Positions 22,272 to 51,185 of a DNA stretch of 64,000 nt are shown here, one piece after another. The DNA is from Rhizophagus irregularis (lineage: Eukaryota), in assembly GCF_026210795.1 (NCBI RefSeq), contig NC_089433.1, forward strand, positions 1,922,001-1,986,000, given 5' to 3'. The notes below the pieces were generated by a model that worked only from the letters and a program-made list of their open reading frames with translations, searched no databases and had not been told where the DNA came from. Positions within the stretch are counted from its first letter, which is position 1. Every line of letters begins with the position of its first letter. The translations under genes and the position numbers were made by a program.

Positions 22272-24569
22272 TTTACTATGTTTACGGCCAGACCACCCAT
22301 TGCCTCTTTTTGAGACTAATCTCGGGTCTGTGTCCTATCATCTTCAATGGGCAACCATTATATCGAGTACTTAATTCCTCAGGTAACAGCACCACTATAG
22401 AAGACATCTCCCATCGGGCCACTTTAGGCTGATCTGAAGCTAGGTACACGCCGCCTACTCATCCTATACCCATTGCATGATACTGATACTCAATTTATTT
22501 TACGACCTTTAGAGAGCATCTACTTTCATGGAGGACTTTCGACAGGTAACATCAACCATCTAGTACCCTTTCATACTACCATTTTAGGTACTAAGTCTCA
22601 CTCAAAGGCCACTACAGCCCCGATTACCTAGCACCGATAGTACAGTTGTTTACCCCAAGTGGTATACTTTGTAGTAACCTAACCATGACAGGAAGTAGCA
22701 GGCATTTGTCCAGGATCACCCCTTATAGTGGGTATCAACCACCAGGGATCACTAACCAAAATCTAAAGAGTAGGAAATCAAACCCCATAACCATGCTACC
22801 TGTTCTGTGCACTGGTCAAAATCAATACTATCAGGTACATATCGGGTACCTGATATGTGTATAATATATGTGATATATGTGTATGATATTTAACAATACT
22901 ACACATATCAGGTACCCGATATGTGTAGTAGAAATGTAGAAAATCGGTGACATATACTGTAAACATCACATATACATCTTACACATATCGGGTAGTCAAA
23001 TATCGGTGACATATCTTGTAAACATCATGTATATATCTTATACATATCGGGTAGTCAAATATCGGTGACATATCTTGTAAATATCACGTATATATCTTAT
23101 ACATATCGGGTAGTCAAATATCAGTGATATATATTATAGATATCATATACTTAACACACATATATCGGGTAGTTAGCTATAAATTTCATATTAAAACTAA
23201 TAGATATATATCTTTTTTTTATTTTAATTCAGATAAAATGAAATTCAACTTTATTAAAATTTAAACAATAATACAAGTCTTACTCTATCTACTACATACG
23301 TAAAATCAAATAAAGTTGAACATTAAAAATAAATAATTATACTATGTAATATGTAAAGTTCTACTGAAAGTAGCAATGATAATAAAATTATCTGTTTAAC
23401 ATTTAAAAAAAATATTAATGAAAATATTAGTAAGTATATTAATTAATAAGAGAAATAAAAATAGAAATGTTAATAAAAACGTTAGTGGTAAAAATATAGA
23501 AAATGTTAGTAAAAATGTTAGTAGAAAGAAAGAAAAGTTAGTAAAATAGAAAATATTAATACGAGAATGTTAATAAAAACATGTTAGTAGTATTTAATAT
23601 TAATAGAAAATGTTAATAAGTGGTAAAAAACATTAGTGAGAGAAAAGAAAAAAAGTATTAGAACGTCAATAGAAAATGTATATATATAAAAGAAAAAAAC
23701 AAGCATAATGAAAATATACCTTTATGTTTATTTCTAATATAAAAATAAATAAAAAAATATAATAATATTATTATTTCATAATAACTAAGTAAAGAGTTTG
23801 TTTTAAATAAAAAGTAAAAAGTTTAAGAGAAAGGTTTTTACGAAAGGAAAAAAAAAAATAAACAAAGTGCGAAATATAAATACCGAAATCATGTGATCAA
23901 TCGCTTGATTACAACAACAAATTCTGATTGGGCCATAATTTTAACCCCGGGTTATTATAATTTATAATAGAATTACACTGCAAGTTAAACTCTTTATTGC
24001 TTTAAATTACCAATTAGTCACATATCGGGTACCTATCGGTAACCTATCATGCATATACCAGTCAACAAGTTAAATCACTGATTTTTCGTAATATCACAAT
24101 AATAAATATTAATTTAGAATCTCCTTCATCCACTCAACTTACAGTTTGTATTATTATCCAAGAATCCATGCACTGGTTGAATGATGGCATATCAGGTCAT
24201 AAGATATCATGGCATATTGGTTAAATATCAGAAACCTGATATAGCTTGATATGTAATATTAAAAATCATATACATATCAGTAACCCAATATGACAATGAT
24301 TTGTTACCATAAGAGATATCGGTATTCTAATAGGTTGTTGAAATCTATATGAAAATAATCTGATTTATAAGTTACTCTTAAGTAGCTTTAATTGATTGAT
24401 CGGCAAAGAGAAACTTTAGTTTTGGAACGGTTTAATCCATCTGAAGTATATTGTTTCATTTAATAACGGAAATACTTATTTATCATAAATATAAATATTT
24501 TTTTTTTTCCTTTTTTAGGGTAAATATTTTTATTTTTATTATTCATTTATTTGATTTTTTAACTTACAG

Positions 24570-27500
24570 TTCAGTTTTCTTGCAGGTTTCGTTCTCATTG
24601 GAAATAGATTTTGGTAAGTTTATTTTACATTTTTTCCCCTATATTTAATCCCTTTAATTTTATATTTCTTAACAAACTTTATTAATTGTTCATTATTTTC
24701 TTTCTATTTTAGGTGGATTTTCGGTCTTCTTTAGGACTTCGGAACTCGGAAGTTAACTTCCTTAACTTCAGTTGATATTAGACAAAACTTTTTGTAGATC
24801 GGTATCCTGGAATGAAACAGTAAGTTTCAGAGTATTTCATTTTACTTCAAAACTTTTTAAAATTTATCTTATCTTTATTAGTATTTTTTTTGTAGGTATC
24901 GATAGAGTGAGTTTCTTGGATCGTTTTTTTAAATTTGCTTTGAAGAAACTAATTATTTCTTCTTTTGTCAAGTTTGTAGGGTTCGTCTTCAATTATCAGG
25001 TCAGTTCTTTGGTAAGTTTTGAATTGAAACTAAAAGGAATTTTTTTTTTTTAACGAGCATTGCTAACGTTTCGTTAATATATTTTTTTTAGGTTTTGGGT
25101 TCAACTGGACTCCTTCAGTGAGTTTCTATTCGAACTTTTAGAAAAATCAAATTTCTTTTTAGCTAACATTTCATTGTTATTTTTTTTTAGGTTTCAGGTT
25201 CAACTGGATGACTGGATTCCCCTCCGTTCTTCAGTGTATTTCGTTCCAAACTAAAAAAAATTTTTTTTTAACGAAATTTCGCTAATGGTGGTAAATCCGT
25301 AATGATCATCACATTAATCTGATTTGTAATTGCCGATATCGATAATCTAATTTTAATTCTTCTTCAGTTTTATTTTTTTTTTCATTTAACTGAAAAAATT
25401 TTAGTAAATAATTGGTGAAGTTTTTTTATTTCTATTTTATTTTTATTCCTTTTATTATATTTTCTTTTTTATCTTTAGGGATATCTCTCAGACTTGGAGC
25501 TCAGCCCTTTATTTCAATTTGAGAACATTATTAACGTTCCCTTTCTTTTTTTTCTTTAGGGACAGTGAGACGCGGACTTCGGCCTCTTGGATACCGGGCT
25601 TTGGAATGGTAATTAGAATGGGAGAGGATTCTTTTTTTTTGATTTGAGAACATTACTAACGATCCCTTACTTTTTTCTTTAGGGATAGCGAGTCGTGGAA
25701 TTTGGTCTTGAATGCTGGACTTCGGAATGGTAACTAGAATAGGAGAGCAGGAAGGGGATTTTTTTGATTTGGGAACGTTACTAATATTCCGTTTCTTTTT
25801 TTCTTTTGTAGATTCCGGAACCCGTTGGACACCATTTCGAAAGGACCCCGAATAATACTAATATAACTCACAAATGATCGGCATGCATTTACTATTAACT
25901 CTACGCAACTTTTTTTTTATAGTAACGCTACGCAAATCCAAATCTTAGTTCAAAAAAATTTTTGTTACTAATATAATTCATTTCACATTTTTTCTATTAA
26001 AATATTAATAAAATCATGCAAACCTCACCATTTTATATTAAAATAGTGTAGTTCGCACTTTTTTCTATTAAAATATTAATAAAATGGTGCGAAAATCACC
26101 ATTTATTTGTTAAAATGGTGCGTTTCGCACTTTTTCTATTAAAATATTAATAATATCATGCGAAACTCACCATTTATTTGTTAAAATAGTGCGTTTCGCA
26201 CTTTTTTATAATAAAATATTAATAAAATGGTGTGAAACTCTCCATTTATTTGTCAAAATGGTGCGTTTCGCACTTTTTTATATTAAAATATTAATAAAAT
26301 GGTGCGAAACTCTCCATTTATTTGTCAAAATGGTGCGTTTCGCACTTTTTTATATTAAAATATTAATAAAATGGTGCGAAACTCCATTTTTTTGTTAAAA
26401 TGGTGCGTTTCGCACTTTTTTATATTAAAATATTAATAAAATGTGCGAAACTCCCGATTTTTTTGTTAAAATGGTGTGTTTCGCACTTTTCTATTAAATT
26501 ATTAATAAAATGGTGCATTTCGCACTTTTTCTATTAAAATATTAATAAAATGGTGCGAAACTCTCCATTTATTTGTCAAAATGGTGCGTTTCGCACTTTT
26601 TTATATTAAAATATTAATAAAATGGTGCGAAACTCCATTTTTTTTGTTAAAATGGTGCGTTTCGCACTTTTTTCTATGAAAATATTAATAAAATGGTGCG
26701 AAATTCACCATTTTTTGTTAAAGTAGTGCATTTCGCACTTTTTTTTTATTAAAAAATATTAAAATAATGCGAAATGCATTACTTTTTGTTACTATATACA
26801 ATTAATTACCAAAATCCGTAATATTGCAAATTTCATAAATATATTACGGACCCATCCTTAATGGTTTTGCGCAACTTAATTTTTATCAATATTATACAAT
26901 TGATCAACATATATTTATAAACTCTACGCAAACGTGATATGTGAGTTATCCCAAAATTGACCGATCTACGCAAACTCAATTTATGGGTTTAAAAAGTAAT
27001 TTCATATAAACTCTACGCAAACCCGTTTGTGAGTTATATCAGTATTATTCGGGGTCCTATTTCGAACCAGTAAGTAAAAAAAAAAAATACTTTAAAAAGA
27101 AGGCGTATAGATATATACTAACCTTCTATTTTCTTTTTTTTTTGTAGGTTCCGGACGCCATTTCGAACCGGTAAGTTAAAAATCGTTCTAATAGAAGGCG
27201 TATAGATATATACTAACCTTTTATTTTCTTTTTTTTGTAGATTCTGGACCCTATTCGTTCTTATTTTTTGTAGGTTCAGAATGCCGAAGATACACATTTC
27301 GAAGGTAACTTCAGTTTATTTTATTTATTTTTTTGTTATATTCAAGCGAAACGTTACTAATGCTTCGATTTTTTTTTTAGGGTTTCGGCTCTCTGGAACT
27401 CTCCTGGGCGGAATTTCGAAGGTATTTCTTTGAAATTAATTTATTTCTTTGTTTTATTTAAATGAAACGTTAACTTAAACGTTTCAATTTTCTCTTTTTA

Positions 27501-28870
27501 TAGGTCCATGGCTTCCCGAGCGGCATTTCGAAGGTAAAACTTCAAAAACTTTTATTTTTATTTTTATTCAATGAACATTAATTAACGTTCGTTCTATTTT
27601 TTGTAGGTCCAGAACACCGAAGGTATAGTGACGGACTCCACTTCGAAGGCAAAACCATCGAAGTTTTTTAATTTTATTTAATGAAACGTTGGCTAACGTT
27701 TCATTTGTGTTTTTTTTATAGGTTTTGTAGGTCCACGGCTTTCCGGACGCGAATTTTGAAGGTAAAACTTTGAAATTAAAATTTTTTTTTATTTTAATTT
27801 GATGAACGTTAACTAATGTTCGTTTTGATTTTTTGTAGGTCAAGACATTGCCGGGTTCTATTTTGAAGGTGAAAGTTCGAAATGATTTTTTTTATTTTTT
27901 AACGAACATTATACTAATGTTCATTTTTCTTTTATTTTTGTAGGTCAGGACGCTGCCAGACTCCATTTTAAAGGTATTTTCTTTGAAAGTTTTTTTTTAT
28001 TAATTTATTTAACGAATGTTAGCTAACGTTCGTTCTTATTTTTTGTAGGTCCAGAATACCGAAGGTGCGATTCTGGATCCATTTTGAAGGTAACTTCAAT
28101 TTTTTTTTTTTTTTCAGCTAAACGTTCCTAATGTTTCAGTTTTTCTTTTTTAGGTATTTGGCTCTCCGAAATTCTCCTGGATGGAATTTTGAAGTTACTT
28201 CTTTGAAATCATTTTACTTTTTATTTTATTTTGTTATATTTTAGCAAAACGTTACTAACTTTTCGTGTCTTTTTTTTTAGGATCAGGAAGTTGAAGCACT
28301 CCCATTTCGAAGGTGAAACTTTTATTTATTTTTTATGTTTTATTAATGAAATGTTTTTATTAATGAAAGGTACTAACATTTTATTTTATTCTTTTTGTGA
28401 GAACCCAGCCGTCACTACTGCCATTTCGAAGGTAAAACTTCGAAGTCTGTTGTTTTTTTTTATATTTATTTAAACGAAATGTTGACTAACATCTCGACGT
28501 TTTGTTTCCTCTTTTTGTAGGTTTTTGACTCTCTGGACGCAGAATTTCGAAGGTAATACTTCGAAATTCTTTTTTTTTACTTTCTTCTAACGAACGTTAT
28601 ACTAACATTTATTTATTTTATTTTTTAGGTTCCAGGTTCCCTTTCAAACATTTCGAAGATGACAATTCGAAATGTCATTTGTTTTATTTTGTTTTTAACG
28701 AACGTTTGCTAAAGTTCGTTTTTCTTTTCTATATGGAAACCCGGGACCTAAAAAGTAAAAGTTCGAAGGTAAAGCTTCAAGATTGAGTTTTTCTTTTTTT
28801 CTTTATTTCTCTATAACGAAACTTTATTTCTTTTGTAGGTCCTGGACACCGTTTCAAAAGAATTGAATAG
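24570..28870 (+). other. Array of micro-exon/intron modules (putative spliced transcript 1 of the CACTG element)
   Basis: Repeated pattern: CTAAC branch, polyT, TAG | ~10-50 nt GC-richer exon | GT. About 14 consecutive exons at 27273-28768 end in TT(C/T)GAAG or close variants. Confidence 0.7.
25842..27058. mobile_element. AGGACCCCG-family element (1217 bp) with internal 69-bp repeats, 8-bp TSD ATTTCGAA
   Basis: TIR AGGACCCCGAATAATACT.ATATAACTCACAAA. ATTTCGAA at 25834-25841 and 27059-27066. Confidence 0.92.
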
Positions 28871-30590
28871 TTGTTTGCTGGAATCGAACCAACTGGAACA
28901 ATGTTCCAAACCATTAACAACATAATGTAGATAGATAGATAGAATAGGATAAATGAATGTAATTTATGTATAATAATGAAATAAAAAATATACGTTTAAA
29001 TAAATAAATAAATAAATAAATAATGTATATAAAATAAATAAATAATAAGAATAATAAGAAATCAGGTTTCGATGTAGCAAATATGCAACTAATATTATAG
29101 ACAGTTCGGTAAGGATTAAGATTGCTAAAATTCTTCCGATATTCATATTACACTTACCCGATGCTGCTTGACCCAAAAGTCACATGACTTATACCTGATC
29201 TGCGCCGAGAACCGGTCACAAATCAGGTGGACTGATCAGCTCCCATTCAGGTTAAAATCGAAAACAAATAATAGGGGCTATCGGGTATATGAAATTTACC
29301 CGGTAGCCCTTCATTTAACTAGTGAAAGGTAATGAAGTATGTGGTCATTGTGGTGTGAATGGTGTTAGGAATTCCACTAATGCCATTTCTTTATCTTTTT
29401 TAGGTTTTTAAGCAGTTTTTAAACAGCTCTTAGACAAACGGCATGTAATGGAGTGTATATATATATATAGTTGAGTGTGGTATTGCTAATGGTGTTATAA
29501 AAAATAATAACTAGTAACGCCACTATTTTTTATTTTTAGGATTCTTGATAGTTCCTGGATAATCCTTCGCGGTAGGTCTTTTGGTTGGGTATTAATGGCG
29601 TTATTAAACTATATAATAATGCCTTTTTTATTTTTTTTTAGGTTTTAAGTCAGACGATTATTTGCAATAAGTTTCTTTGGGTGATTATATGGAGCGATAT
29701 TAACACCTTTTACTTCTTTCTTTTTTGATTTTTAGACGATTCGTTGATAACTGTTTATGGTAAGTCTTTCGGGTGGGTGTTAATACAGTAGTACTATTAA
29801 ACTATAATAACACCTTTTTTTTTGTTTTTAGGTTTTAAAATAGTTTCTGGATGTCTCCTTGCAGTATGTTTCTTTGAGTAGTTATGTGGTGATATTAATG
29901 GCATATTAAATCCATTTGTTTTTTTTTTCGTTAGGTTTCTGAATGGTTTTTGTGGATAAAAAACACAGATTTCTGTACTGGTAATAAGTTTCTTTTGGTT
30001 GGTATGTGAATGTTAATGACGTTAGGATGCAGTACTAACATAATTTCTTCTATTTTTTAGGTTCTTGGACAATGCTTTGAACGATTTTTGGATAAAACAT
30101 TATGGTAGGTTCTTTTGTTAATGCAATAATGGTATTATTAAACAAAGCTAACACTTTTTTTTTATTTTTTTATGTTTCTTGGATTAAAACGCGTAATGTA
30201 GATCAGACATGATCGTAATGTCAAGATCAACTAAGACGTGACATCTGATATTAGAACTTAGAAGTTGCTTGTTGGAATCGAACCAACTGGAACAATGTTC
30301 CAAACTATTAAAACATAATGTAAATAGATAGAATAGGATAAATTAATGAACAATTTAAATATAATAATGAAATAAATATATTATATGTTAAATAAATAAA
30401 TAAATAAATAAATAATAGTACATATAAATGAATAAATAATAAAAAGAAATCAGGTTTCGACATAGCAAATATACACCTGATATCATAAATAGTTCAGTAA
30501 GGATTAAGAGAAATATCGGATTGCTGAAATTCTCCCGATATTCATATAACACTTACCGTTATGTTCTGACCTGAAAGTCATATGACAAAT
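28870..30590 (+). repeat. Diverged direct repeat (~320 bp; ~28870-29195 and ~30263-30590) closing each micro-exon array; a second exon array lies between the copies (~29400-30180)
   Basis: Both copies contain TGGAATCGAACCAACTGGAACAATGTTCCAAAC, AATAAA-rich tracts and GAAATCAGGTTTCGA...GTAAGGATTAAGA. Confidence 0.8.
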
Positions 30591-31285
30591 CATTTGACCT
30601 GTGATTAGTACCTGATATATATTAGAAATATATCGGTGACATATTGGGCGATATATATCTGATTATATAGGTGCCCGAAATATACCAGTGTATATCGGTG
30701 ACATATTGGGTACCCGATGTTGTACCCGATATATGTAAATGCCCGATATATATCTGATTAGTCACCGATATATAGGTGCCTGATATATACCCGATAGCAT
30801 AGATTTTGACCAGTGGTGTACGAACACTTTGGTTGGTCTAAGACCTAACAGAAGGTCAAACTACCACTAAGACATTGCACTCTCAGCCCTCAGCTTTACC
30901 ATTTAGGACGACCATCTAGCTATTACTGACTCCAAGTGGTATCGTAGAGTGACCACCTGGACAGGAAGTCTCCCCCAAGGTATAGTAGTGACCTCAAGAA
31001 CAGGACTGCGCACATACCAATGGCCTCATAGGGAACGTTAGAAAGACACCATGACCCTTAGTTGAAATGTGCGGTCTAACCGTACACACTAATTCACCAT
31101 GATGCAGTCCAACTACACTAATCCCTGTACTTTCATGCTATTGGTTGTAGCGTCCGCAGTAAAATTCTTTTTATTTCCGTGGTCATGGGAATCGAACCTG
31201 CGACCTCACCATACTCAGGCTTAATGAGGGACTCAGTTACTATCTACCGAAATAGGGTGACCAACCTTTAGTTTTATCCTTTTAC

Positions 31286-33721
31286 TTTGCTATATTTACG
31301 GCCAGACCACCTATTGCCTCTTTTTGAGGCTAATCTCGGGTCTGTGTCCTATTATCTTCAATGGGCAACCATTATACCGAGTACTTAATTCCTCAGGTAA
31401 CAGCACCACTATAGAAGACATCCCACATCGGGCCATTTTAGGCTGATCTGAAGCTAGGTACACACCGCCTACTCATCCTATACCCATTGCATGATACTGA
31501 TACTCAATTTATTTTACGATCTTTAGAGAGCATCTACTTTCATGGAGGACTTTTGACAGGTAACATCAACCATCTAGTACTCTTCCATACCACTATTTTA
31601 GGTACTAAGTCTCACTCAAAGGCCACTACAGCTCGCGATTACCTAGTACTGATAGTACAGTTGTTTACCCCAAGTGGTATACTTTGTAGTGACCACTCAG
31701 ACAGGAAGTAGCAGGCATCTGTCCAGGATCACCCCTTATGGTGGGTATCAACCACCAGGGATCACCAACCAGGACCCAAAGAGTAGGGAATCGAACCCCA
31801 TAACCATGCTACCTGTTCTGTGCACGAACACCTTGGTTGGTCTATGACCTAACAGAAGGTCAAACTACCACTAAGACATTGCACCCTCAGCTTTACCATC
31901 TAGGACGACCATCTAGCTATTACTGACCCCAAGTGGTATCGTGGAGTGACCACAGGACCCCGAATAATACTAATATAACTCACAAATGATCGGCATGCAT
32001 TTACTATTAACTCTACACAACTTTTTTTTCATAGTAACGCTACGCAAATCCAAATCTTAGTTCAAAAAAATTTTTGTTACTAATATAATTCATTTCACAT
32101 TTTTTCTATTAAAATATTAATAAAATCATGCAAACCTCACCATTTTATATTAAAATAGTGTGTTTCACACTTTTTTCTATTAAAATATTAATAAAATGGT
32201 GCGAAAATCACCATTTATTTGTTAAAATGGTGCGTTTTGCACTTTTTCTATTAAAATATTAATAATATCATGCGAAACTCACCATTTATTTGTTAAAATA
32301 GTGCGTTTCGCACTTTTTTATATTAAAATATTAATAAAATTGTGCGAAACTCTCCATTTATTTGTCAAAATGGTGCGTTTCGCACTTTTTTATATTAAAA
32401 TATTAATAAAATGGTGCGAAACTCTCCATTTATTTGTCAAAATGGTGCGTTTCGCACTTTTTTATATTAAAATATTAATAAAATGGTGCGAAACTCTCCA
32501 TTTATTTGTTAAAATGGTGCGTTTCGCACTTTTTTATATTAAAATATTAATAAAATGGTGCGAAACTCTCCATTTATTTGTCAAAATGGTGCGTTTCGCA
32601 CTTTTTTATATTAAAATATTAATAAAATGGTGCGAAACTCTCCATTTTTTTGTTAAAATGGTGCGTTTCGCACTTTTTTATATTAAAATATTAATAAAAT
32701 GTGCGAAACTCCCAATTTTTTTGTTAAAATGGTGCGTTTCGCACTTTTTTATATTAAAATATTAATAAAATTTGCGAAACTCCCAATTTTTTTGTTAAAA
32801 TGGTGCGTTTCGCACTTTTTTATATTAAAATATTAATAAAATGGTGCGAAACTCTCCATTTATTTGTCAAAATGGTGCGTTTCGCACTTTTTTATATTAA
32901 AATATTAATAAAATGGTGCGAAACTCTCCATTTTTTTGTTAAAATGGTGCGTTTCGCACTTTTTCTATTAAAATATTAATAAAATGGTACGTTTCGCACT
33001 TTTTTATATTAAAATGTTAATAAAATGGTGCGAAATTCACCATTTTTTGTTAAAGTAGTGCATTTCGCACTTTTTTTTTATTAAAAAATATTAAAATAAT
33101 GCGAAATGCATTACTTTTTGTTACTATATACAATTAATTACCAAAATCCGTAATATTGCAAATTTCATAAATATATTACGGACCCATCCTTAATGGTTTT
33201 GTGCAACTTAATTTTATCAATATTATACAGTACAATTGATCAACATATAATGCAATATATTTAAAAACTCTACGCAAACGTGATATGTGAGTTATCCCAA
33301 AATTGACCTATCTACGCAAACTCAATTTATGGGTTTAAAAAGTAATTTCATATAAACTCTACGCAAACCCGTTTGTGAGTTATATTAGTATTATTCGGGG
33401 TCCTGTGACCACCTGGACAGGAAGTCCCCCCTAAGGTATAGTAGTGACCTCAAGGACAGGACTGCGCACATGCCAATGGCCTCATAGGGAATGTTAGAAG
33501 GACACCATGACCCTTAGTTGAAATGTGCGGCCTAACCGTACACACTAATTCACCATGATGCAGTCCAACTACACTAATCCCTGTACCTTCACGCTATTGG
33601 TTGTAGCGTCCACAGTAAAATTCTTTTTATTTCCGTGGTCATGGGAATCGAACCTGCGACCTCACCATACTCAGGCTTAATGAGGGTCTCAGTGACTAAC
33701 CACTAAGATAGGATGACCAAC
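31286..33721 (-). mobile_element. tRNA-derived SINE copy 2 (interrupted by an AGGACCCCG element)
   Basis: Same ~970-bp sequence. Two B boxes on the minus strand (31787-31797 and ~33644-33654). Target copies at 31272-31285 and 33725-33738. Confidence 0.87.
31954..33404. mobile_element. AGGACCCCG-family element (1451 bp) with expanded 69-bp repeats, 8-bp TSD GTGACCAC
   Basis: Near-identical to 25842-27058 apart from repeat number. GTGACCAC at 31946-31953 and 33405-33412. Confidence 0.92.
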
Positions 33722-33738
33722 TTGTTTTATCCTTTTAC

Positions 33739-34945
33739 TTTGCTATGTTAATGGCCAAACCACCCATTGCCTCTTTTTGAGACTAATCTCGGGTTTGTGT
33801 CCTATCATCTTCAATGGGCAACCATTATACCGAGTACTTAATTCCTCAGGTAACAGCAATACTATAGAAGACATCCCCCATCGGGCCACTTTAGGCTGAT
33901 CTGAAGCTAGGTACACGCCGCCTACTCATCCTATACCCATTGCATGATACTGATACTCAATTTATTTTACGACCTTTAAAGAGCATCTACTTTCATGGAG
34001 GACTTTCGACAGGTAACATCAACCATCTAGTACCCTTCCATACCACCATTTTAGGTACTAAGTCTCACTCAAAGGCCACCACTGGTAAAAAATGATTTAT
34101 CCTACACATATCTTACACATATTGGGTACTCAAAATGTAGAAAATCATACACAAATAATACACATATCATACACATATCGGATACTAATATATATATCAT
34201 ACATATATCAGGTACCTGATAGGTATACTATATATATAAGTACCCGATATGTGTATGATATGTATATTATTTGTGTATGATTTTCTACATTTTGAGTACC
34301 CGATATATGTAAGATATGTGTAGGATATGTGTAGGATAGACCATTTTTTTACCAGTGCACTACAGCCCGCGATTCACCACAGGTACCGATAGTACAGTTG
34401 TTTATCCCAAGTGGTATACTTTGTAGTGACCACTCGGACAGGAAGTAGCAGGCATCTGTCCAGGATCACATTTTATGGTGGGTATCAACCAATAACCATG
34501 CTACCTGTTCTGTGCACGAACACCTTGGTTGGTCTATGACCTAACAGAAAGTCTAACTACCACTAAGACATTACACCCTCAGCTTTACCATCTAGGACGA
34601 CCATCTAGCCATTATTGACCCCAAGTGGTATCGTGGAGTGACCACCCGGACAGGAAGTCTCCCCCAAGGTATAGTAGTGACCTCAAGGACAGGACTGTAC
34701 ACATGCCAATGGCCTCATAGGGAACGTTAGAAGGACACCATGACGCCCGTTGAAATGTGCAGCCTAACTGTACACACTAATTCACCATAATGCAGTCTAA
34801 CTACACTAATCCCTCCCCGTACCTTCACGCTATTGGTTGTAGCGTCCACAGTAAAATTCTTTTTATTTCCGTGTCATGGGAATCGAACCTGCGACCTCAC
34901 CATACTCAGGCTTAATTTATGTGATAGCGACTAACCACTGAGATC
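33739..34945 (-). mobile_element. tRNA-derived SINE copy 3 (MITE insertion, internal deletion, head slightly truncated)
   Basis: Aligns with the other copies. Target at 33725-33738 and 34947-34960. Confidence 0.85.
34080..34357. mobile_element. CACTG MITE (278 bp), 3-bp TSD CAC
   Basis: Runs CACTGGTAAAAAATG...CATTTTTTTACCAGTG, with CAC on both sides. Largely palindromic. Confidence 0.9.
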
Positions 34946-34960
34946 ATTTTATCCTTTTAC

Positions 34961-36163
34961 TTTGCTTATGTTTACGGCCAGACCACCTATTGCCTCTTTT
35001 GGACTAATCTCGGGTTTATGTCTCTATCATCTTCAATGGGCAACCATTATACCGAGTACTTAATTCCTCAGGTAACAGCACCACTATAGAAGACATCCCC
35101 CATCGGGTCCACTTTAGTCGATCTGAAGCCAGGTACACGCCGCCTACTCATCCTATACCCATTGCATGATACTGATACTCAATTTATTTTACAACCTTTA
35201 AAGAGCATCTACTTTCATGGAGGACTTTCGACAGGTAACATCAACCATCTAAGTACCCTTCCATACCACCATTTTAGGTACTAAGTCTCACTCAAAGGCC
35301 ACCACTGGTAAAAAATGATTTATCCTACACATATCTTACACATATTGGTACTCAAAATGTAGAAAATCATACACAAATAATACACATATCATACACATAT
35401 CGGATACTAATATATATATCATACATATATCAGGTACCTGATAGGTATACTATATATATAAGTACTCCCGATATGTGTGTGATACGTATATTATTTGTGT
35501 ATGATTTTCTACATTTTGAGTATCCGATATATGTAAGATATGTGTAGGATATGTGTAGGATAGACCATTTTTTTACCAGTGCACTACAGCCCGCGATTAC
35601 CTAGTACCGATAGTACAGTTGTTTACCCCAAGTGGTATACTTTGTAGTGACCACTCGGACGGAAGTAGCAGGCATCTGTCCAGGATCACATTTTATGGTG
35701 GGTATCAACCAATAACCATGCTACCTGTTCTGTGCACGAACACCTTGGTTGGTCTATGACCTAACAGAAAGTCTAACTACCACTAAGACATTACACCCTC
35801 AGCTTTACCATCTAGGACGACCATCTAGCCATTATTGACCCCAAGTGGTATCGTGGAGTGACCACCCGGACAGGAAGTCTCCCCCAAGGTATAGTAGTGA
35901 CCTCAAGGACAGGACTGTACACATGCCAATGGCCTCATAGGGAACGTTAGAAGGACACCATGACCCTTAGTTGAAATGTGCAGCCTAACTGTACACACTA
36001 ATTCACCATAATGCAGTCTAACTACACTAATCCCTGTACCTTCACGCTATTGGTTGTAGCGTCCACAGTAAAATTCTTTTTATTTCCGTGGTCATGGGAA
36101 TCGAACCTGCGACCTCACCATACTCAGGCTTAATGAGGGTATTAGTGACTAACCACTGAGATC
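34961..36163 (-). mobile_element. tRNA-derived SINE copy 4 (near duplicate of copy 3)
   Basis: Same MITE at the same site, same internal deletion and same head truncation as copy 3. Target at 36165-36178. Confidence 0.85.
35303..35581. mobile_element. CACTG MITE, duplicate of 34080-34357, TSD CAC
   Basis: Same termini and same insertion point within the SINE. Confidence 0.9.
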
Positions 36164-36178
36164 ATTTTATCCTTTTAC

Positions 36179-37152
36179 TTTCGCTATGTTTACGGCCAGA
36201 CCACCTATTGCCTCTTTTTGGACTAATCTCGGTCTGCGTCCTATCATCTTCAATAGGCAACTATTATACCGAGTACTTAATTCCTCAGGTAACAGCACCA
36301 CTATAGAAGACATCCCCCATCGGGCTACTTTAGGCTGATCTGAAGCTAGGTATACGCCGCCTACTCATCCTATACCCATTGCATAATACTGATACTCAAT
36401 TTATTTTACGACCTTTAGAGAGCATCTACTTTCATGGAGGACTTTTGACAGGTAACATCAACCATCTAGTACCCTTCCATACCACCATTTTAGGTACTAA
36501 GTCTCACTCAAAGGCCACTACAGCCCACGATTACCTAGCACCGATAGTACAGTTGTTTACCCCAAGTTGTATACTTTGTAGCGACCACTGACAGGAAGTG
36601 GCAGGCATCTGTCCAGGATCACCCCCTTATGGTGGGTATCAACCACCAGGGATCACCAACCAGGACCCAAAGAGTAGGGAATTGAACCCCATAACTATGC
36701 TACCTGTTCTGTACACGAACACCTTGGTTGGTCTAAGACCTAACAGAAGGTCTAACTACCACTAAGACATTGCACCCTCAGCTTTACCATCTAGGATGAC
36801 CATCTAGCCATTACTGACTCCAAGTGGTATCGTAGAGTAACCACCCGGACAGGAAGTCCCCCCAAGGTATAGTAGTGACCTCAAGAACAGGACTGCGCAC
36901 ATGCCAATGGCCCCATAGGGAACGTTAGAAGGATCTGTGACTCGGATTGAAATGTGCAGCCTAACTGTACACACTAATTCACCATGATGCAGTCCAACTA
37001 CACTAATCCCTGTACCTTCACGCTATTGGTTGTAGCGTCTGCAGTAAAATTCTTTTTATTTCCGTGGTCATGGGAATCGAACCTGCGACCTCACCATACT
37101 CAGGCTTAATGAGGGTCTCAGTGACTAACCACCGAGATAGGGTGACCAACCC
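36179..37152 (-). mobile_element. tRNA-derived SINE copy 5, uninterrupted (~974 bp)
   Basis: Minus-strand head GGTCACCCTATCTCGGTGGTTAG...GGTTCGATTCCCATGACCA (B box 37073-37083). Flanked by the target at 36165-36178 and 37156-37169. Confidence 0.88.
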
Positions 37153-37420
37153 TTATTTTATCCTTTTACTGTGCAAACAGTCTTTTGACTTTATCTTTTA
37201 TTCATATTTTAACATCGAAAATTGACGAACAATATTACAAAAATAAGAAAATAAACTAATAAAAAATAAAAAGAGTAGCTTCACGACTCATATAAGTAAA
37301 GAAATCTAAACTAAAATAAAATTAAAGCAAAGAAAAACTAAACTATTACAGAATCGCATACCCCAACTTTACCCGAAGGCCAGTGTGAGTCAACTATCCA
37401 ACGTCCAAAAATCCAGTCCG

Positions 37421-40400
37421 TTACCAGAAAGAAATCCTAAGAGGTTGAACTGTTAAGCGGCGCAGAAAATCCAAGTGCGAGATCCATGATCCGCCCCGAA
37501 TTATAGAAGAGGATATCCAAGAAATCCAGGAATCCTGAGAGACTGACGCCAAAGAAGAGTTGTGAATATGTGAAGAAATAGCAGTAAAAGGAGGATTTGA
37601 AGATGGGCCACGTAATTTGGAAGCAGCCGAGATACCCTGTGACTCTTCCCAAGCATGGAAAAGAATATTACGACATAACCAAATTTCACCATATAGTTCG
37701 ATCTGGAAGTCGTTAAGAAGAGTCGAAATAGTCTTATAAATAACCGAAAGAGGGAAATATTGTTTCAGAAAATTCGTCAAATGCGCAGGTAACAATCCTC
37801 TAGTAAGCCAAAGATAGGATGAAGAAGGAGTTTCATAGTTCCAACAATCAAGAGCAGAGAATGCAACATGGAAATTAGAGTCCAAAGGTTTCAAGGACAA
37901 AAATGAGGATAGACACGAATCTCTGAATTTAACAACTTCAGAACGATGTGTCGAACATGGATTAAGTTCTGGAAGAATATAAGGACAAGTCCAAAGATGG
38001 TTCAAATCTTCAGGAGCGGAATTGCATTGTGGACAAAGCCAATCCGGAGAGTATAAATAAGGTTTGCGTTGTTGAAGAGTAGTTAAAGTGGGCAGCATAT
38101 CCAGAAGAAGTTTGATACGGAAGATCCAGAATTCAGGACGACCATTCTTATGCGAAGCAAAGCCTTTAATTTGCGAAAGGCAAAAGTATATACCAGCCCA
38201 ATCAAAAAGTGATGGAGAGCCAAGAGCAGTGAATCGTGCCATTGAACAAAAAGATAAAAGTGCGCAAGCATCTGCTATAGACCGGAGGAAGTGCCGAATA
38301 TTCATGTCAATAGGCAAAGAATTAAAAGTTAAAAAGCATGGGACATGACAAAATGCCAAAGGTGAGACGGTAGGTTGCGAAGACAAATGAGAAGCTTTTG
38401 CCAAAGAGTCCACTTGTACATTGTAGAAATCATCACCATGAGCAGGGACTTTAATCAAATTGACAATAAGCTTACGATCTTTGATCAGTTGTCGAATAGA
38501 AAGCCAAAGAAGGTGATTGTGTTCACGAAGCAACTTCGGTGAGAAGGGAACATCAACAAAGCGTTTCCATAATGAAATTAACTGACTACAGTCGGTATAA
38601 ACAGAGATTGAAGAACCATGGGAAAGAGCGTTTAGCCCTAATACAATAGCATAGATCTCAGAACGTAAGGCTGAAGGGAAACATGAAGGAATTTGTAAAG
38701 ATGAAGATTCAAGGATAAGTCCGTCATCATCAAGAGCAAGCCAGGCAGAAGCCATGGAAGAAGGTGAAGAGTCTGTAGCAGTATGAAAAGAACCATCAGT
38801 ATACAAAGATTGCACAGAAAGTGGCAAAACTTTATCATCAGTCGTATCCATAAAGGGAGAAGAGAGGGCGGAAAAAGTAGGTAAAGACGGGTTTGTCAAA
38901 TGAACAAGAGCCAGAGAAGTAGCATAACTTCATGAAGTAGATAAAGTTATGGGAAGATAAGCCGCAAATACTTTGGCATTTCTGGTAGGATAACCTACGG
39001 TATCTGATAAGATCACATTAAAAAAGCATTTCTCACTATTACAGCGTTGTTTGATTGCAGATTTCTTGGATAGAGCGGGGATATTAAAGGAACAACCAGG
39101 ACAAGGATTATAAGATCGTTCATCAGCAGAAGAAGATACAGAGAGCCAATGAGACATGATAGCAGAGTTTTGTTTCTTGTAGGTAATACAAACATGGCCT
39201 ACGGATAGAGTTTGGGTAGCAGAATCAAAATTGATAGCCCATTGAGGATAAAAGTGATAATCTTTAACAGTATGATCTAATAAACAAGGTGAAGCTAAAG
39301 TAAAAGAAGAATTAATAAAATACAAGGGTAAAAATAAAGAAGAAGAAGAAGAAGAAAGAAAATTATTTTTAATAAAGTTAAACCAAATAGGGATCCGTCC
39401 TTTACGGCCCACAATACCAAGATAACGAAGGTCAGACCAATTCATAAGATAACGTCCACAAGGAGAAGCCAACTGGGCAAGTACGAAGATATTCAAATGT
39501 TTCCAAAGTTTCCAACTTATTTGAAAAATTGATTGTGGTAAAACAGTTCGGAGTGGTAACGCTAATTGTAAATCCTGCCTCGGAGGTTGGAAGGGAAGGG
39601 ACCACGTGATACTTAGACGCGAAGAAAATAATAATGAATTAAACAAAGTATGCGTCCGAAGAGAGACGACCTGTGACCATGGTTCCAAGTTGATAGTAGT
39701 TGGGCAACTTTCAGCACCCAAATATCCTTGAAGATAGGAGATAGCATAGAGGGCAAAATCTTTGAAATCAGGATGAGTGAAAATTTTTTGCCAAGATGCA
39801 ATATGGGAAGAAAGAAATCGATAAAAAGCATTCTGAATCGAAAAGGGAAGTTTAAAAAATAACAAGGCCAATGGAGTAGTCGCAGCAAGTCCAGCTTTTC
39901 TTCGAAGTACTGAAAACATAGGCTTGACTATTGAGTGAATAGTACTGTCAGAGAAAAGGGTGGTTTGAAGACGAAATTCCAATCGCGGAAGAAGGACAGC
40001 GTTATAGAGATAGGCCACATGTTGTGCTAATAGTTTCTTTGGACCCAGAAGAGCAGCCATATCTTTAACCATGGAGCGCGCTTGTTTAAGAACAAAAGCA
40101 GAAGAGGCGGATAAGGAAAACCAAACACCTAAAAAGCGAAAGGAAGTATTAAGAGATAAAGAAGAGAGAGAAAGAAAGGTATTGGAAATTAAACATGAAG
40201 GTGAAAGTTCGAAGGTAATCTTCGAAGAAGGAGAAGAGGATGAAAGAAGAACATATTTTGCTGAATTGGCTTGAACATTATTTAAAGTATAAAATTCAGC
40301 AGTAATAGAAAGGCAATCTTCAATTCCAGATTTTGAAGAAGCAATAAGGGTAGAATCGTCCATGAACGTCAAATGTGAAATTGGTAAAGAATGTTGTTCA

Positions 40401-42807
40401 AATTCAAGTGGAGAATAAGTTAAAAGAGCTGAAGATTTTAAAATAAAAGGATCTCGTGCTTCACAATTCAAAACAGTAAGTAAAGGGTCCAAGTAAATAA
40501 CCCAGAGAAGAGGGAAAATAATTTCTCCTTGATCGATACCAACACGTACTCGATAAGCAGCTGTATCACCGTGACAAGTAATTATCTTATTATTTCATCG
40601 TGTAAAAAGATTCAAAATAAATTGCACTAAAAGTGCAAGGATATGTAATCTATCTAAAGCTAATTTAAGCATATTTAAGTCCATGGAATCAAAAGCTTTA
40701 GAGATATCTTGAGAAACGATCCATAATTCCTGATCATCAGTAGAGTCATGTTTTTGTTGATGGATAATCGCATCAAGCATTTTGATAGGGACATCCGTAG
40801 AACCACCAGGTAAACCAGCAAAATTACCACCTTGGAGAATTTTATTATCAGCAAGGATGTTGGAGAGACGATTCGTGACGACCTTAACTACACATTTACG
40901 AACTGTTTCCAGAAGAGTAATGGGTCGAGTGTTCTTAAGTTGAGCATCAAAATCATGAGGTTTAGGAATAGGATAAACTACAGCCTCACGCCAGTCAGCA
41001 GGGATATCACCGCGAGAAAGGCAGGTATTCGCAAGTAAAAGAGAGAAATCCAAGGCTTCACCGGATAAATGCTTTATTATTTCATAAGAAATTTTTGAAG
41101 GGCCAGAAGCTTTGTTATTAGGCATGGAAGAAATCACATCAGACCATTCTTGTAGAAAAATGGGTGCCAAAACAGGGTTATATAATGAGGCAGACACATC
41201 GGAGAGAGGGTGTAAGCTTGTTGCCAACGAACAGGAAATGAAGCAATAGAAGAGTAGTGGACCAACGGAGGAGAAACAATTGATTGGAAATGAGTAATAG
41301 CAGCTTGCTTAATATCCGAAGGATCCGTTAATAAAGTAGGAGTAGAATCCAGGACAACTAGGACGCGGTCGAGAACAATCGAACGTTTTTCTACTGATAA
41401 GGCAGAATCTATAAAAGTGCCAAGTGAGTTCGAAAAGTGTTCATCACGTAAGGCAGTGTAGTATTCCACGGAGTCCGTAAGATGTTGGGCAAATTTAGTA
41501 GATAGAAAGGCAGAAACTAAATTCTTTTGCGATCGTAAAAATGATTTAAATCCAGATACGGGAGTAGTAGAATAAGTAGGAACTGAATAATCAGGAAGCA
41601 AGGATGCAAGATTCATTAGATGAGTAGGCAAAGCAGCAGTCATTTGTGACAGTTGAGTAGGCCGATTAGGACGACGAGTTGTAAGACAATATAAAAATCG
41701 ATCTAAAAACTTGTTAATGGCAATAAGTTTAGTTAATTCAGGAGAGTACGAATGTCGGTGTGTATTGGAGACTTTTTGAAAGGGTAAAGTTTCAATTGCA
41801 GCACTGAGTATGGTGGCTTTCAATGCATGCCACATACGATCAAGAGAAAGAGAGGAGAAATCAAAATTGGGGTGATATTGCTTGTCTAAATATACTCCAA
41901 GAGAATCATCTACTTACGTGGTAAAATTATTCCATTGTTCAACTGAAGTGGAAGTATAAGAAAAAATAGTACGCGTTTCTTTTTTTTGTTTAAGACGAGA
42001 TTTAGCTAAAATAGCCAGACAAGAACTGAAGTCAAAAACAGTTGTAAGAACTTTGTGATCTGTAAAAGGACGATCAAGGAGATTGGGGCAAGTAACCACT
42101 TGCGAAAAGAGACCAGGAGCGGGAAAACCAGGTGAAGACCAGATATAATCCAGTCTAGAAGATCCATTATCATGAAAAAAGATAGGATCAGGACCATCAA
42201 TAGAAGAATAGGCTTGATGATCGGTAAAAAATCGAGAAGAAAGTAAACGAAGGAGTTTAAAATGATTGGGGGGATAATTAGAATGAGCAACTTCATCAAT
42301 ATTGAAGTCACCAAGTATTATTACAAAATAATTATTAGTACGTGCATGATCAAGCCAAGAAAGAAGTTTGGCAATAAGATCATTGCAAATAGATTGATAA
42401 ATAGAACCAGAAGGGGGATAATATATAGAAATAATAGAGATTTTAATTTGATGAAAAAATAAATCTAATTTAAGAAGTCGACCTTTCCAAGGATCGATTG
42501 TTTGAACATGTTTATGAAGGGGGTTACGTAATAAAATGCCAACACCATCATGAGGATGAGAGGAGGATGAGCAGGCCCAATAGGACTGAAAATGATGTTG
42601 GGAGTGTTCGTTTTTAAAAATAAATTTAGTATTAGAAGGGGAAAGGCGGGTATTATTAACAGATAGAGCACCAAAAGAAGAATGAAGAAAAAAATTAAGC
42701 AAATGTTGTTGTTGAACAGAGGAACATAATCCATTTACATTAATTTGACCAAATTTAATAAGGGGAGAAGGGTGGGGAGAAAAATTATGTTTATTGTTGT
42801 CCATCAT
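37421..42807 (-). pseudogene. LINE B ORF2 (APE - RT - RNase H - C-terminal zinc finger)
   Basis: APE: QINVNGL, ILGDFN, RLDYIW, TDH. RT: KASGPS, NTRPITLL, QDISKAFDS, FMDDSTL, FLGVW. RNase H: LYTDGS, RSEIYAI, YTDC, KVPAHG. Finger: CPQC...HLWTC. Split by stops and frameshifts. Confidence 0.92.
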
Positions 42808-44164
42808 TATTACACACTGATAAAACGGTAATAAAGAAGGGGAAAGAAAAACAACAATTATTGATTAGCTTGGCCATGTTGGCGAGCTAAGATGAGGTTG
42901 TTTTGTTGGATTCCTTCTTTAATTGAACCAGCCAAAGAGGCAACAGTATCAGAAAGAGAGGAGAGACGCTGTTCCATATCAATAGGAGAGGAAGGAGCGA
43001 CGTTGGAAGGTGGAATAGGAGCAAATTGAGGAATCGGAGTAAATCCACTTGTTGATTGTAAAGGAGGAGAATTAATATCAACAAGGATATTGTTATTAGT
43101 ATTGTTCACTAAATCATCCCATCCTTGCATAGAGGAAGGGATGTAGGAGGGCGGTTTTGCGACAAAAGGTCCTGGAACAGGAGCACAAGCAGCCATAGCA
43201 GATTCCAATTTGGTGATGCGGCTGTTCATGGTAGCAAATTGTGTGGTAAGAAGGGCTAATTCTTCAACTACTTTTTCAAGAGCAGCACCGATAGATTTCC
43301 AATCAGTAAGCACAGTAGGAGGGGCAGGGTATGTAATATTCATGCCATCAGCATAGTGATCAAGTTCATTTGCATCAGGAATACGACGATGTTGATTATT
43401 GTTGTGCTTATTATTAAGATTATCACGATTCTATGGTCGGCGTTGAGAGCGAGAACGAGATTGTTATCGATTATTAGGTCTGGAATTAGAACGATGGCGA
43501 GAAGCACTAGTATGGTGATGTCCATCATTATTATTATCAGGGCGGGCAAAACGATTATGTCGTTTAGCAGGATGAGAAGGAGGCAAATGCTTATTATATA
43601 AAGCACGTAATTTATCATTAGATTGCCAAGGGCGAGAAGGGCGATTAGGTCTAGATGAAGAACCACATCGGTCAGGGTTACAATTAGGGCGACCACATCG
43701 ATGACAAAGAAAAGTGACTTCATCCGGAGAATGCCAGGTAAGGCCAACATTCTTGAGGGTGCATAAAATAGATTTTGCATTTTCCATAGCCGTTTCAGAG
43801 GCAAAATGGCAATAGGCATAAGGCTTGGGATTATAAGAATTCATAGAGAAGGGAACATTAATAGATTTAGCGGAAATTTCATCAGCAATTTCGGCAAGAT
43901 CGACCGCAATAGTACCACGCGGAAGACCAGCAAGTAAAGCAACAAAAGCGCGTCTTTCAGCGCGTTGGTCAGGTGAGAAAGTAGCGGGGCAGACGCGTAA
44001 GCAATGTCCACCACAAAGGACGCCCCAAGTAGAGTCGAGGTTCTGTAATGCACCAGTAGATTCAAAGGTAATGTATGCAGTACGATAAAGTTTAGATAAA
44101 TGGGTATGGCAGCGAGTAATATTGCCATAACGACATCAGGAAATTTTATAGCGCAAAAAATTGC

Positions 44165-44700
44165 GTAAGTTTACGATTTTGTAAGTTTATGAAAGTTTAT
44201 GGCATAATATTTCGAAAAATTTCAAAATATTACGTAAGTTTACAATTTCGTAAGATTTATGTGATATTACGGTTAAAATATTACGTAAGTTTACAATATC
44301 GTAAGATTTACGCAATATTATGGTCAAAATATTCTGCAAATTTACGAAACTGTAAACCTGCGTAATATTACGGTTGAAATATTTCGAAAATTTACGAAAC
44401 TGTAAACCTGCGTAATATTACGGTTGAAATATTTTGAAAATTTACGAAACTGTAAACCTGCGTAATATTACGGTTAAAATATTTCGAAAATTTACGAGAC
44501 TGTAAACCTGCGTAATATTACGGTTGAAATATTTCGAAAATTTACGAGACTGTAAACCTGCGTAATATTACGGTTAAAATATTTCGAAAATTTACGAAAC
44601 TGTAAACCTGCGTAATATTACGGTTGAAATATTTCGAAAATTTACGAGACTGTAAACCTGCGTAATATTCCGTTTCGAAAATTTACGAGATTGTAAACTG
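44165..44700. repeat. Left subterminal array of Plavaka copy 2 (50-bp unit)
   Basis: TTTACGAAACTGTAAACCTGCGTAATATTACGGTTGAAATATTTCGAAAA recurs every 50 bp from 44341 to ~44670, with degenerate copies upstream. Confidence 0.9.
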
Positions 44701-45067
44701 CGTATGCAGTAGAACGTATACAAGGGGCATGTGATACTATTGAATAATCAAAAATAATATAAACACCTTTTCTTTTATATAAACACCTTTTTTTTAAGTT
44801 TGGGAAAGCAAATTTATTTTTATTTACGAATTTTTTATTATTTACAATTTTTATGTTAAAAATTAAAGTAAATTCTAATTTTTATTATAACTTAATAAAA
44901 AAATATACATTTGATACTTGTTCGCTACTATTTTATAAAATAGTACCCAGGCTGTACGGCGTGGACGTCAGTATCAGTCACAGCCCAAAAAAAACGTGAG
45001 TCTCCAGCCGATATTTGGTACGGACTGGGCCTAGCTACTCACTTAATAAATAAAAAAATAAAAATAA

Positions 45068-45709
45068 TTATCTTCTACGATACGTAGGTAAGTTTCTCCT
45101 TCTCCTACGATCATCACGCGTATCTAAAATTGATCAAATTTATCAAATTTAAAATGTGAACGTAAAATAGAATGTAATATTAATTATAAAATTTTATTAT
45201 AGTATAATTACCCGGCCTCTCCCAAAATCTCGTTCTAAATTCGCGATAATATCTTTGGCCGGTACGCGTCCACAGCCGCCGCCCAGGCCGATCAGGGGTA
45301 CCATTACGATAAAGGACATAGTTCTAAATATCAAAATCAGTTTGAATATTCGGTAAATACATTTAATTTAAATGAATGTAATTTTATTTATTTACTTACA
45401 TGGTAATCCCTGACGAGGTTCCTCCACTTTTGGCTGCACTGTTGCCCGGAAACCCTCGTTCGAAATATTCTATTTATTCTGATTCAATTAAATGGATTGG
45501 TTAATTTGAATTTAAATTCTTTCTTAAAGAAAATTATAGATATTAGTCATATGAACCTATTGGCAACAGAGTCCCCAAAAATCATGGCGGCTTCTACCAT
45601 TAATATTATGGTAGGCGCGGTTTCTGTCGCGGCGTATGTCGACAAGTTCGTCCATCATAGCCCAGTTCCAATGGACGTTATAGGAACGATGACGTGTTTG
45701 ACGAGGCAT
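45068..45709 (-). pseudogene. Four-exon Myb/SANT-like (trihelix-type) DNA-binding protein gene, ~132 aa, one 1-nt frameshift
   Basis: Exons 45709-45557, 45478-45400, 45323-45212 and 45123-45068, all with GT-AG introns and consistent phases. Product is MPRQ..VHWNWAMMDELVDIRR..HDFW(fs)DSVANRINRIFRTRVSGQQCSQKWRNLVRDYH..FWERPD..RRR*. Confidence 0.78.
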
Positions 45710-46220
45710 TATTAGATTTGATTTTATTTTTATAATTTGATTTTGGGATGAGTAAAAATTTGAAAGAAAGTCGTAAAATGTCACTTTAAATAAAATTTGA
45801 ACAATACCTCTTTGGTTTGATTTTATTTCTCGTTTCAATTAAAATTTAATTTATTAGACTTTTCATCATTAAACATATTAATTAAATCTCATGCGGATAT
45901 GGATTATCTAAATATAAATATCATGATTCTAAATATAGATATAAATCACTTAATTTATTTTAATTTTTTTTTAAAAAAAAATCTTAGTTTGATTTCAATT
46001 AAAAATAATTAAAAATCATGTACATGTTTTGGTTATTTAAATATAAATATCAATATATTATATTTAAAAATAAAACAATTTATTATTAGCACATTCTATT
46101 GAATTTTAAAAAAAAATCATCAATATATCATATTTAAAAATAAAACAATTATATTCTGATTAAATATTTTGCGTACATTTCTTAAAAAAATCATAAAAAA
46201 AATCTTGTACGTCGTACATG

Positions 46221-46420
46221 CAATTACTAAATATCATCCCCTTGTGATAAATAAAAAATTACGCAACACAAATTCAACACAAACTCAACACAAATTTAAC
46301 AAATTTAACGAAATTTGGCCAAAATTAACAAATTTTTTACTAGAATTATCAACACAAATTGAACACAAATTTCAGTCACGATTTATTTATGTCACGCCCG
46401 TGTTGTTAATAATTAAATAA
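46221..46420 (+). repeat. Internal inverted repeat, left arm (partner 54052-54238)
   Basis: CAATTACTAAATATCATCCCCTTGTGATAAAT...GTCACGCCCGTGTTGTTAA is the reverse complement of 54052-54238 with few differences. Confidence 0.9.
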
Positions 46421-46518
46421 ATAAATCTGCATTTTATTTATGATATGGAAAACGTGACCATAAATTCTTTTAAGGATATAATTTTATTAAAATAAATCAA
46501 AACTCCTATATCAAGTGA

Positions 46519-51031: not shown

Positions 51032-51185
51032 GTTGCTAAATTAACGCGTCAAATTTGATGAAAAGTATCAATTCACTATTCAATTTATAAGATTTTGTGT
51101 GCTAATAAAATTATATTGCAAATTTATTGTAAAAATTTAATGAATTATTGAATGGATTACAATTGATTGAGTTATTTGAATAGAT

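Follow-up and report, generated by a model that had tools for sequence, protein, structure and literature searches.

Organization of the locus

The window (the whole 64,000-nucleotide stretch analyzed here) is AT-rich fungal repeat DNA that carries LINE open reading frames, with APE endonuclease, reverse transcriptase (RT), RNase H and RRM domains, together with Plavaka transposases. With four nested DNA transposons set aside, its minus strand reads from 56423 to 22258 as word-LINE-word-A-word-B-word-C-word-D-word-E-word-flank, where A to E denote five copies of a repeat unit and the word is the 14-letter sequence GTAAAAGGATAAAA. Six elements (one LINE and five units) are in this way separated and flanked by seven words, an n+1 arrangement; the word has no other exact copy in the 64 kb, each of the seven lies at a junction and on the minus strand, and 100 shuffles yielded no match. 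The features, in the order in which the minus strand is read, are:

56410..56423, minus strand: first putative target word, immediately followed by the LINE 5′ end
37170..56409, minus strand: decayed full-length LINE, candidate partner; ORF1 split by an 11.4-kb insertion
44134..55534, no strand assigned: nested DNA transposon in the LINE ORF1; CATCAGGAAA inverted ends, TC duplication, Plavaka gene inside
37156..37169, minus strand: target word GTAAAAGGATAAAA, LINE/A junction (3′ end of the LINE); probably a target-site duplication
36179..37155, minus strand: candidate SINE copy A, full length, the subject of this report
37064..37151, minus strand: module 1 of copy A, decayed tRNA-like head; A-box-like TATCTCGGTGG at 37139-37129, perfect B box at 37083-37073
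36667..36769, minus strand: module 2 of copy A; A-box-like TGTCTTAGTGG at 36769-36759, B box GGTTCAATTCC with 1 mismatch at 36688-36678, T-arm-like stem
36165..36178, minus strand: target word, A/B junction
34961..36164, minus strand: SINE copy B; lacks 15 nt of the head and, through a 45-nt deletion, B box 2
34947..34960, minus strand: target word, B/C junction
33739..34946, minus strand: SINE copy C; head deletion, 45-nt deletion and MITE (34357-34080) as in B
33725..33738, minus strand: target word, C/D junction
31286..33724, minus strand: SINE copy D; split by a ~1.45-kb CAGGACCCCG-ended element (33405-31953)
31272..31285, minus strand: target word, D/E junction
22272..31271, minus strand: SINE copy E; interrupted by an 8-kb transposon (30815-22810; CACTGGTCAAAA inverted ends, CAC duplication)
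22258..22271, minus strand: last target word, followed by the flank CTACCACCATTC
22177..22257, minus strand: downstream target flank; resembles palindromic MITE arms, recurs in contigs of another run

The letters after the successive words are C for the LINE, T for copies A, B and C, C for D and CT for E, and finally the flank CTACCACCATTC. Those standing between a word and the next 5′ end (C, CT or CTACC) correspond to the start of the downstream flank, CTACCACC. Over 80 nt, this flank matches each arm of a MITE at 2555-3093 with 71–72% identity (e-values 4e-7 and 2e-5), which indicates that the target probably lies within a repeat, likely a repeated element of the DNA-transposon type. The MITE itself is a near-perfect palindrome of 540 bp with 262-nt arms (92%), sits inside a Plavaka gene and is distantly related to the target flank. 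The data examined contained no empty target site. Upstream of the first word, the 40-bp end of a CAGGACCCCG-ended transposon (56462-56423) replaces the original flank; with that flank lost, the word could in part be the elements' own tail.

Promoter-like boxes and tRNA resemblance of the unit

Copy A runs from 37155 to 36179 on the minus strand and, at 977 nt, is full length. The first-pass annotation had described the unit as non-coding and GC-richer than its surroundings, and both hold: its GC content is 46.4% versus 33.5% in the window, and its longest stop-free frame has 85 codons (60–90 across the copies). A blastn self-comparison (E up to 1) recovered no internal repeat, and TG...CA ends are absent; along with a duplicated word of at least 14 bp, this agrees with the annotation's choice of a SINE rather than an LTR.

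The minus-strand head with an A-box-like motif and perfect B box, and the second module downstream of it, are likewise present as had been proposed. By eye, module 1 can be drawn with a D-stem TCTC/GAGA and a CTCA/TGAG stem closing the 7-nt loop TTAAGCC. In module 2, where the A and B boxes are spaced 81 nt apart, the B box mismatched in copy A is perfect in copy D (31797-31787), and a 45-nt deletion removes it from two of the five copies, B and C. Of 2000 shuffled versions of the unit, 2 contained a perfect B box and 1 contained two B boxes; the B boxes of the unit exceed chance. Conservation of the boxes across copies, which the annotation had expected of a genuine SINE, is uneven: B box 1 is perfect in all five copies, surrounded by 69 columns (unit positions 46–114) that are invariant in all five, a run reached by 27 of 5000 permutations, but A box 1, with one or two mismatches, falls in the most variable part of the unit (21 of 45 head columns) and B box 2 is lost in the two copies just mentioned. 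The transcribed strand indeed has no run of five Ts (T5), as had been pointed out, and a T4 lies at unit position 107; since 1544 of 2000 shuffles also lack T5, its absence carries no weight as evidence. Separately, A-box-like motifs are in excess on the sense strand (six in A and eight in D versus a mean of two, counts matched by 14 of 1000 and 1 of 1000 shuffles, respectively), and this surplus may hint at further decayed heads.

Comparison with tRNA covariance models cuts both ways. ARAGORN finds no tRNA in the unit, and the Rfam matches to the tRNA clan are all sub-threshold (15.2 bits for head A, 12.0 for head D and 13.2 for module 2); the best is to tRNA-Sec (15.2 bits, e-value 1.1, versus a gathering score of 47), an identity that we dropped because its e-values of 1.1–5.5 fall short of significance. 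With a custom tRNA model built from 20 annotated phage tRNAs, and thus phage-based and roughly calibrated, the head of copy D nevertheless ranks first in the window (17.8 bits, e-value 0.0015), and seven of the top nine window hits are modules of this repeat family. Two B-box-like sites outside the family, at 30271-30287 and 28869-28921, attain 13.2 and 11.7 bits, as high as most family modules. Module 2 scores 11.8–12.6 bits, over its 3′ part only, and self-BLAST finds no similarity between modules 1 and 2. A third hit of the model (36666-36610, 9.1 bits) is a hairpin devoid of boxes and was rejected as a module. The modules do not fold better than shuffles (z from −1.55 to +0.73), nor does the whole unit (z −0.54), and BLAST of the head against phage sequences returned only 19–33 nt matches (e-values 0.3–3) to Ile, Arg, Pro and Thr tRNAs, giving no isotype.

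When copy D is aligned to the tRNA model, its anticodon stem reads CCUCA, the loop begins with UU, and the CAT triplet that the annotation had placed at an anticodon-like position falls at positions 30–32, the anticodon positions 34–36 reading AAG; the tRNA-Met origin that had been proposed is therefore unsupported, and Leu(AAG) would be a weak lead to the source of module 1. The acceptor-like GGTCA/TGACC pairing does exist but is displaced by ~3 nt from the 7-bp acceptor register. We read the head as a decayed cloverleaf and the unit as a putative SINE with a tRNA-type head; the tRNA match is weak, and the reading is supported by the conserved B box, the weak but top-ranked tRNA-model hit, the high copy number, the 5′ truncation and the duplicated target word. 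The proposed dimeric structure is plausible, in that the tRNA model picks up module 2 and most of the depth in other runs has a perfect B box 2 (see below); the 81-nt spacing and the deletion in B and C speak against it. Module 2 probably descends from the head of a second SINE-like unit, of which it is a relic; it may act as an extra TFIIIC site and is dispensable for presence in the array.

Five copies and their nested transposons

Pieces of the unit detected by BLAST span 37174 down to 22255, and inverted ends and short duplications identify them as five whole copies broken by DNA transposons; with the nested elements removed, the copies measure 922–991 nt and are 92.4–96.2% identical to one another. 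Copy B houses a CACTG-type MITE of ~280 bp (35581-35303) with a 3-bp duplication. Copies B and C have one MITE and two deletions in common and differ at 8 of 634 central positions, and the MITE carries a T6 run on the sense strand that would stop Pol III; on these grounds, copy C is likely a local DNA-level duplication of B. The tail of B is unlike that of A, contrary to the prediction of simple unequal crossover. Copy D has both the best tRNA-model head (17.8 bits) and the perfect B box 2. The CAGGACCCCG-ended element that splits it (31954-33404) has a second copy at 25842-27058, and these elements contain a 72-bp internal minisatellite. The two halves of copy E belong to one copy, as the CACTGGTCAAAA inverted ends and the CAC duplication of the 8-kb transposon between them indicate. 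Within this transposon there is a 320-bp repeat in which a perfect B box is set in a T-arm-like stem, in two copies (30271-30287 and 28869-28921, minus strand).

The LINE beside the array

The LINE combines an RRM-type ORF1 with an ORF2 that encodes APE endonuclease, RT, RNase H-like and zinc-binding domains, and its copy in the window is broken. We treat its halves as one element with a 5′ end at ~56409, given the inverted ends and TC duplication of the intervening transposon, the 306-codon frame that stays open across the ORF1 join once the insertion is removed, and the alignment of the ORF1 halves to adjacent segments (residues 206-288 and 290-403) of the ORF1 of the neighboring LINE. The word is present at both ends of the LINE, 19 kb apart. 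Its protein is ~90% identical over the whole query to Rhizophagus irregularis proteins, and most of the 98 hits come from R. irregularis. Close homologs contain RNase H (PF00075), and the window's own ORF gives no Pfam RNase H hit; as Tx1 elements, to our knowledge, lack RNase H, its presence in the close homologs argues against membership in Tx1. A PDB search assigns the LINE to no clade.

Neither blastn nor tblastx recovers a common 3′ tail or body sequence between the SINE and the LINE beyond the word, so it is solely their common target that ties the two as candidate partners. The A-rich word may itself serve as the SINE's tail. A putative short A-loop hairpin is found near both 3′ ends (AGTC-AAAA-GACT in the LINE and G(T/C)CTC-AAAAA-GAGGC in the SINE).

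The repeat in other sequencing runs

The unit or part of it was found in 20 of 24 listed sequencing runs from 13 studies, most of which represent one organism. Contigs matching the stretch number 8664 in run X1 and 4463 in run X8, counts that do not equate to a copy number, and the run with the best match may be the window's own source; this is a large, high-copy family. Contig comparison covered positions 35950-37200 in 4 of the 24 runs, and among the joints listed (15 of 18 and 12 of 22) there are at least eight in which the element follows immediately on the word or a close variant of it. Six of these lie inside the unit, at 36325, 36369, 36376, 36477, 37061 and 37066, and two at its head, at 37153 and 37154, each joint being based on little data and four of them on one contig each; in several, C, CT or CTACC stands between word and element. 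The other joints lack the word and reflect internal deletions or the doubled head in the compared stretch. In addition, 11 X1 contigs run on at 37156 into an unaligned end, ATATCACTGAAAAGAATCGAATGGTGGTAG (agreement 0.65), which corresponds to the flank that follows copy E.

At 36683, a perfect B box 2 makes up ~95% of the depth in X1 and >99% in X8. A diverged variant in other runs keeps its core while the neighboring stem is changed, which suggests that B box 2 functions as a promoter element rather than as part of a tRNA. Two RNA runs from two studies, X15 and X16, yielded contigs over 36304-37122 and 36319-37132; because these are metatranscriptome contigs with no silent-stretch control, we do not count them as transcription. 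Pattern scans found nothing in metagenome contigs, prokaryote genomes or viral contigs, and a scan of metagenomes with the LINE protein gave a single weak locus (36% over 54 residues) that was not used.

Proposed insertion into a common target word, and alternative readings

The unit belongs to a tandem of five copies of a high-copy, non-coding repeat with a tRNA-like head, and we consider it probable that this repeat is a SINE inserted by a sequence-specific LINE into the LINE's own target word. The seven words around six elements and the internal starts behind the word are signs of target-primed reverse transcription, the evidence for target specificity being drawn from one full locus and short contigs. 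In the mechanism that we envisage, transcription by RNA polymerase III would begin near 37154, ~15 nt ahead of A box 1, and continue through the unit; the APE endonuclease of the LINE would nick the 5′ side of the word, and the LINE machinery would copy the SINE RNA from its 3′ end. A second cut 0–5 nt past the word would then duplicate it, leaving a copy that is often 5′-truncated. Because each insertion would regenerate the target site, later insertions could stack head to tail and arrays could grow. The array would accordingly comprise four SINE insertions (A, B/C, D and E) and one DNA-level duplication (B to C), a process that, judging from these two copies, also acts on the array. With the target in a repeated element, the SINE-LINE pair could spread at little cost to genes.

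The order of word and unit could also arise if the word were a common 3′ tail of LINE and SINE, with copies inserting behind an existing tail or by template jumping, a reading that we judge unlikely. It would account for every unit ending in the word and for the similar LINE and SINE ends before it (TTTGCACA versus TAGCAAA, and TTGCAAAAG in contigs), and an older element may have stood where the flank before the first word is now lost. However, the flank after the last word recurs in the 11 contigs of another run, and it is the first letters of this flank (C, CT or CTACC) that intervene between the word and the next 5′ end, as duplication of target DNA gives.

Less probable still is a ~1-kb satellite or other DNA-level repeat amplified by unequal crossover, in which the tRNA-like boxes would be a relic and the LINE would merely have inserted at the edge. 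The head-to-tail arrangement with its high identity between copies would suit it, as would B and C with their common MITE and deletions and few central differences. Such a satellite leaves unexplained that the LINE has the word at both distant ends, that A, B/C, D and E have different letters at their junctions, that several 5′ truncation points lie behind the word in other runs and that the B box 1 region is invariant.

Least probable of all, and largely refuted, is a solo LTR, a Helenus-type TRIM (with tRNA-derived sequence within its LTRs) or an array of functional Pol III RNA genes: fungal LTRs can carry A and B boxes, as in Helenus (PMC10886601), and the sense strand has surplus A-box-like motifs and many hairpins, but the unit has neither TG...CA ends nor an internal direct repeat at E up to 1, its copies are 5′-truncated with a duplicated word of at least 14 bp instead of 4–6 bp, and an RNA gene is at odds with the lack of an Rfam family match or folding excess and with copies freely disrupted by transposons.

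Relationship to known SINEs and SINE-LINE pairs

In crocodilians, SINEU-3 and Tx1-Mar LINEs both use one site of another repeat, where tandem SINEs sandwich a ~16 bp duplication inside a non-autonomous DNA transposon (Kojima, 2015; PMC4494074). The copies at that target include 5′-truncated ones; the account given there of these elements reports no LINE sharing the 3′ end of SINEU-1 and states that the common 3′ tail of SINE and LINE holds 'with some exceptions' (PMC4494074). Our locus resembles this system in having a SINE and a LINE at the same target, tandem copies that sandwich a word, and 5′ truncation, and differs from it in the fungal host, the length of 977 nt and a tRNA-like head with A and B boxes in place of U1/U2 snRNA. 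The family of the window's LINE carries RNase H, a domain that Tx1 elements are not known to have. By this analogy, the unit would work like SINEU-3 with Tx1-Mar while standing outside that family.

Viewed against SINE2, the unit has a tRNA-related head (weak, Rfam being below threshold), a non-coding body, neither LTRs nor inverted ends, and many copies. Among fungal tRNA-derived SINEs (SINE2), Mg-SINE and SINE2-1_BG each have the 3′ tail of their LINE (PMC3747384), and AfuSINE2 is a low-copy element of 140–493 bp (PMC5063351). The unit has in common with all three a tRNA-type internal promoter, a non-coding body and target-site duplication; unlike them, it has a second module, and unlike Mg-SINE and SINE2-1_BG, it has no tail in common with its candidate LINE beyond the word. 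The portions of PMC3747384 and PMC5063351 devoted to these three SINEs describe no target specificity.

The first-pass annotation had called the unit unusually long and SINEs rare in fungi. This is overstated, given that Egh24 and Eg-R1 of Blumeria reach 884 bp and 657 bp (PMC10648671) and that SINE families are listed for R. irregularis, alongside LINE/L1-Tx1, L1-R1 and I families (Oliveira et al., 2024; PMC11075540). For Egh24 and Eg-R1, the relevant text of PMC10648671 describes no target specificity. They are, like the unit, long, high-copy SINE-class repeats of an obligate biotrophic fungus. We know of no tRNA head in either. In R. irregularis, which is the species of the window or closely related to it, SINEs are among the upregulated elements and two-thirds of the repeats are unclassified, and the corresponding sections of the same study describe no individual SINE (PMC11075540); the unit's family may be contained in that repeat library, unannotated for structure or target.

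Helenus TRIMs are, like the unit, non-autonomous elements of fungi whose A and B boxes derive from tRNA, but have LTRs, a primer-binding site and 4–6 bp duplications, none of which was found in the unit (Kojima, 2024; PMC10886601); the parts of that paper on Helenus do not mention Rhizophagus. A target-specific element as such has a precedent in fungi, the telomere-targeted non-LTR element cited in PMC4640811. In the open literature, outside Repbase, Dfam, SINEBase and most subscription journals, we found no description of a target-specific fungal SINE or SINE-LINE pair, or of this family.

Implications

The result that stands out is the target site common to SINE and LINE, of which the earlier annotation had said nothing; the SINE class, the length and the two modules come as less of a surprise. 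APE-type LINEs that insert at specific sequences are known mainly from the Tx1 and R1 clades (PMC4640811), and the single target-specific SINE that we came across in print is crocodilian (PMC4494074). We lend about equal credence to either side of the broader proposition that arbuscular mycorrhizal fungi harbor a lineage of sequence-specific LINEs with APE and RNase H, aimed at DNA-transposon motifs, one of which brings a two-module tRNA SINE of high copy number to its own 14–19 bp site. If true, this fungal tRNA-type case would represent a further origin of the strategy of hiding inside other transposons, would explain nested repeat blocks in R. irregularis and would provide a natural site-directed insertion system for a symbiont without genetic tools. 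We know of no stable transformation of R. irregularis, a beneficial symbiont, for which gene delivery could start from a site-specific retroelement whose multicopy target is harmless. With a SINE that has no tail in common with the LINE, the pair would also test how a LINE picks its RNA cargo.

A second LINE family and other repeats in the window

A second LINE family is also arranged head to tail, at 13224-13260 (plus), 21655-21668 (plus) and 61177-61140 (minus), and its 3′ ends run into GGTTTTT(G/A)A(C/T)TAG, which is doubled at the 61177 junction. This motif has four matches in the window, a number reached by 5 of 100 shuffles; its opposite strand reads CACTAGTCAAAAACC, like the end of a CACTA-type transposon, and on that basis the family may likewise be a LINE that targets transposons. 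AACTCTCTCC stands at the start of both LINE families (at 56408, minus; 13250, plus; and 61143, minus) despite an ORF1 identity of ~35%. Tandem arrays of 51-bp (7998-10100) and 50-bp (44200-44730) repeats, ~66% alike, are probably subterminal repeats of Plavaka/CACTA elements; the 51-bp array gives rise to long repetitive open frames of 668 and 338 codons.
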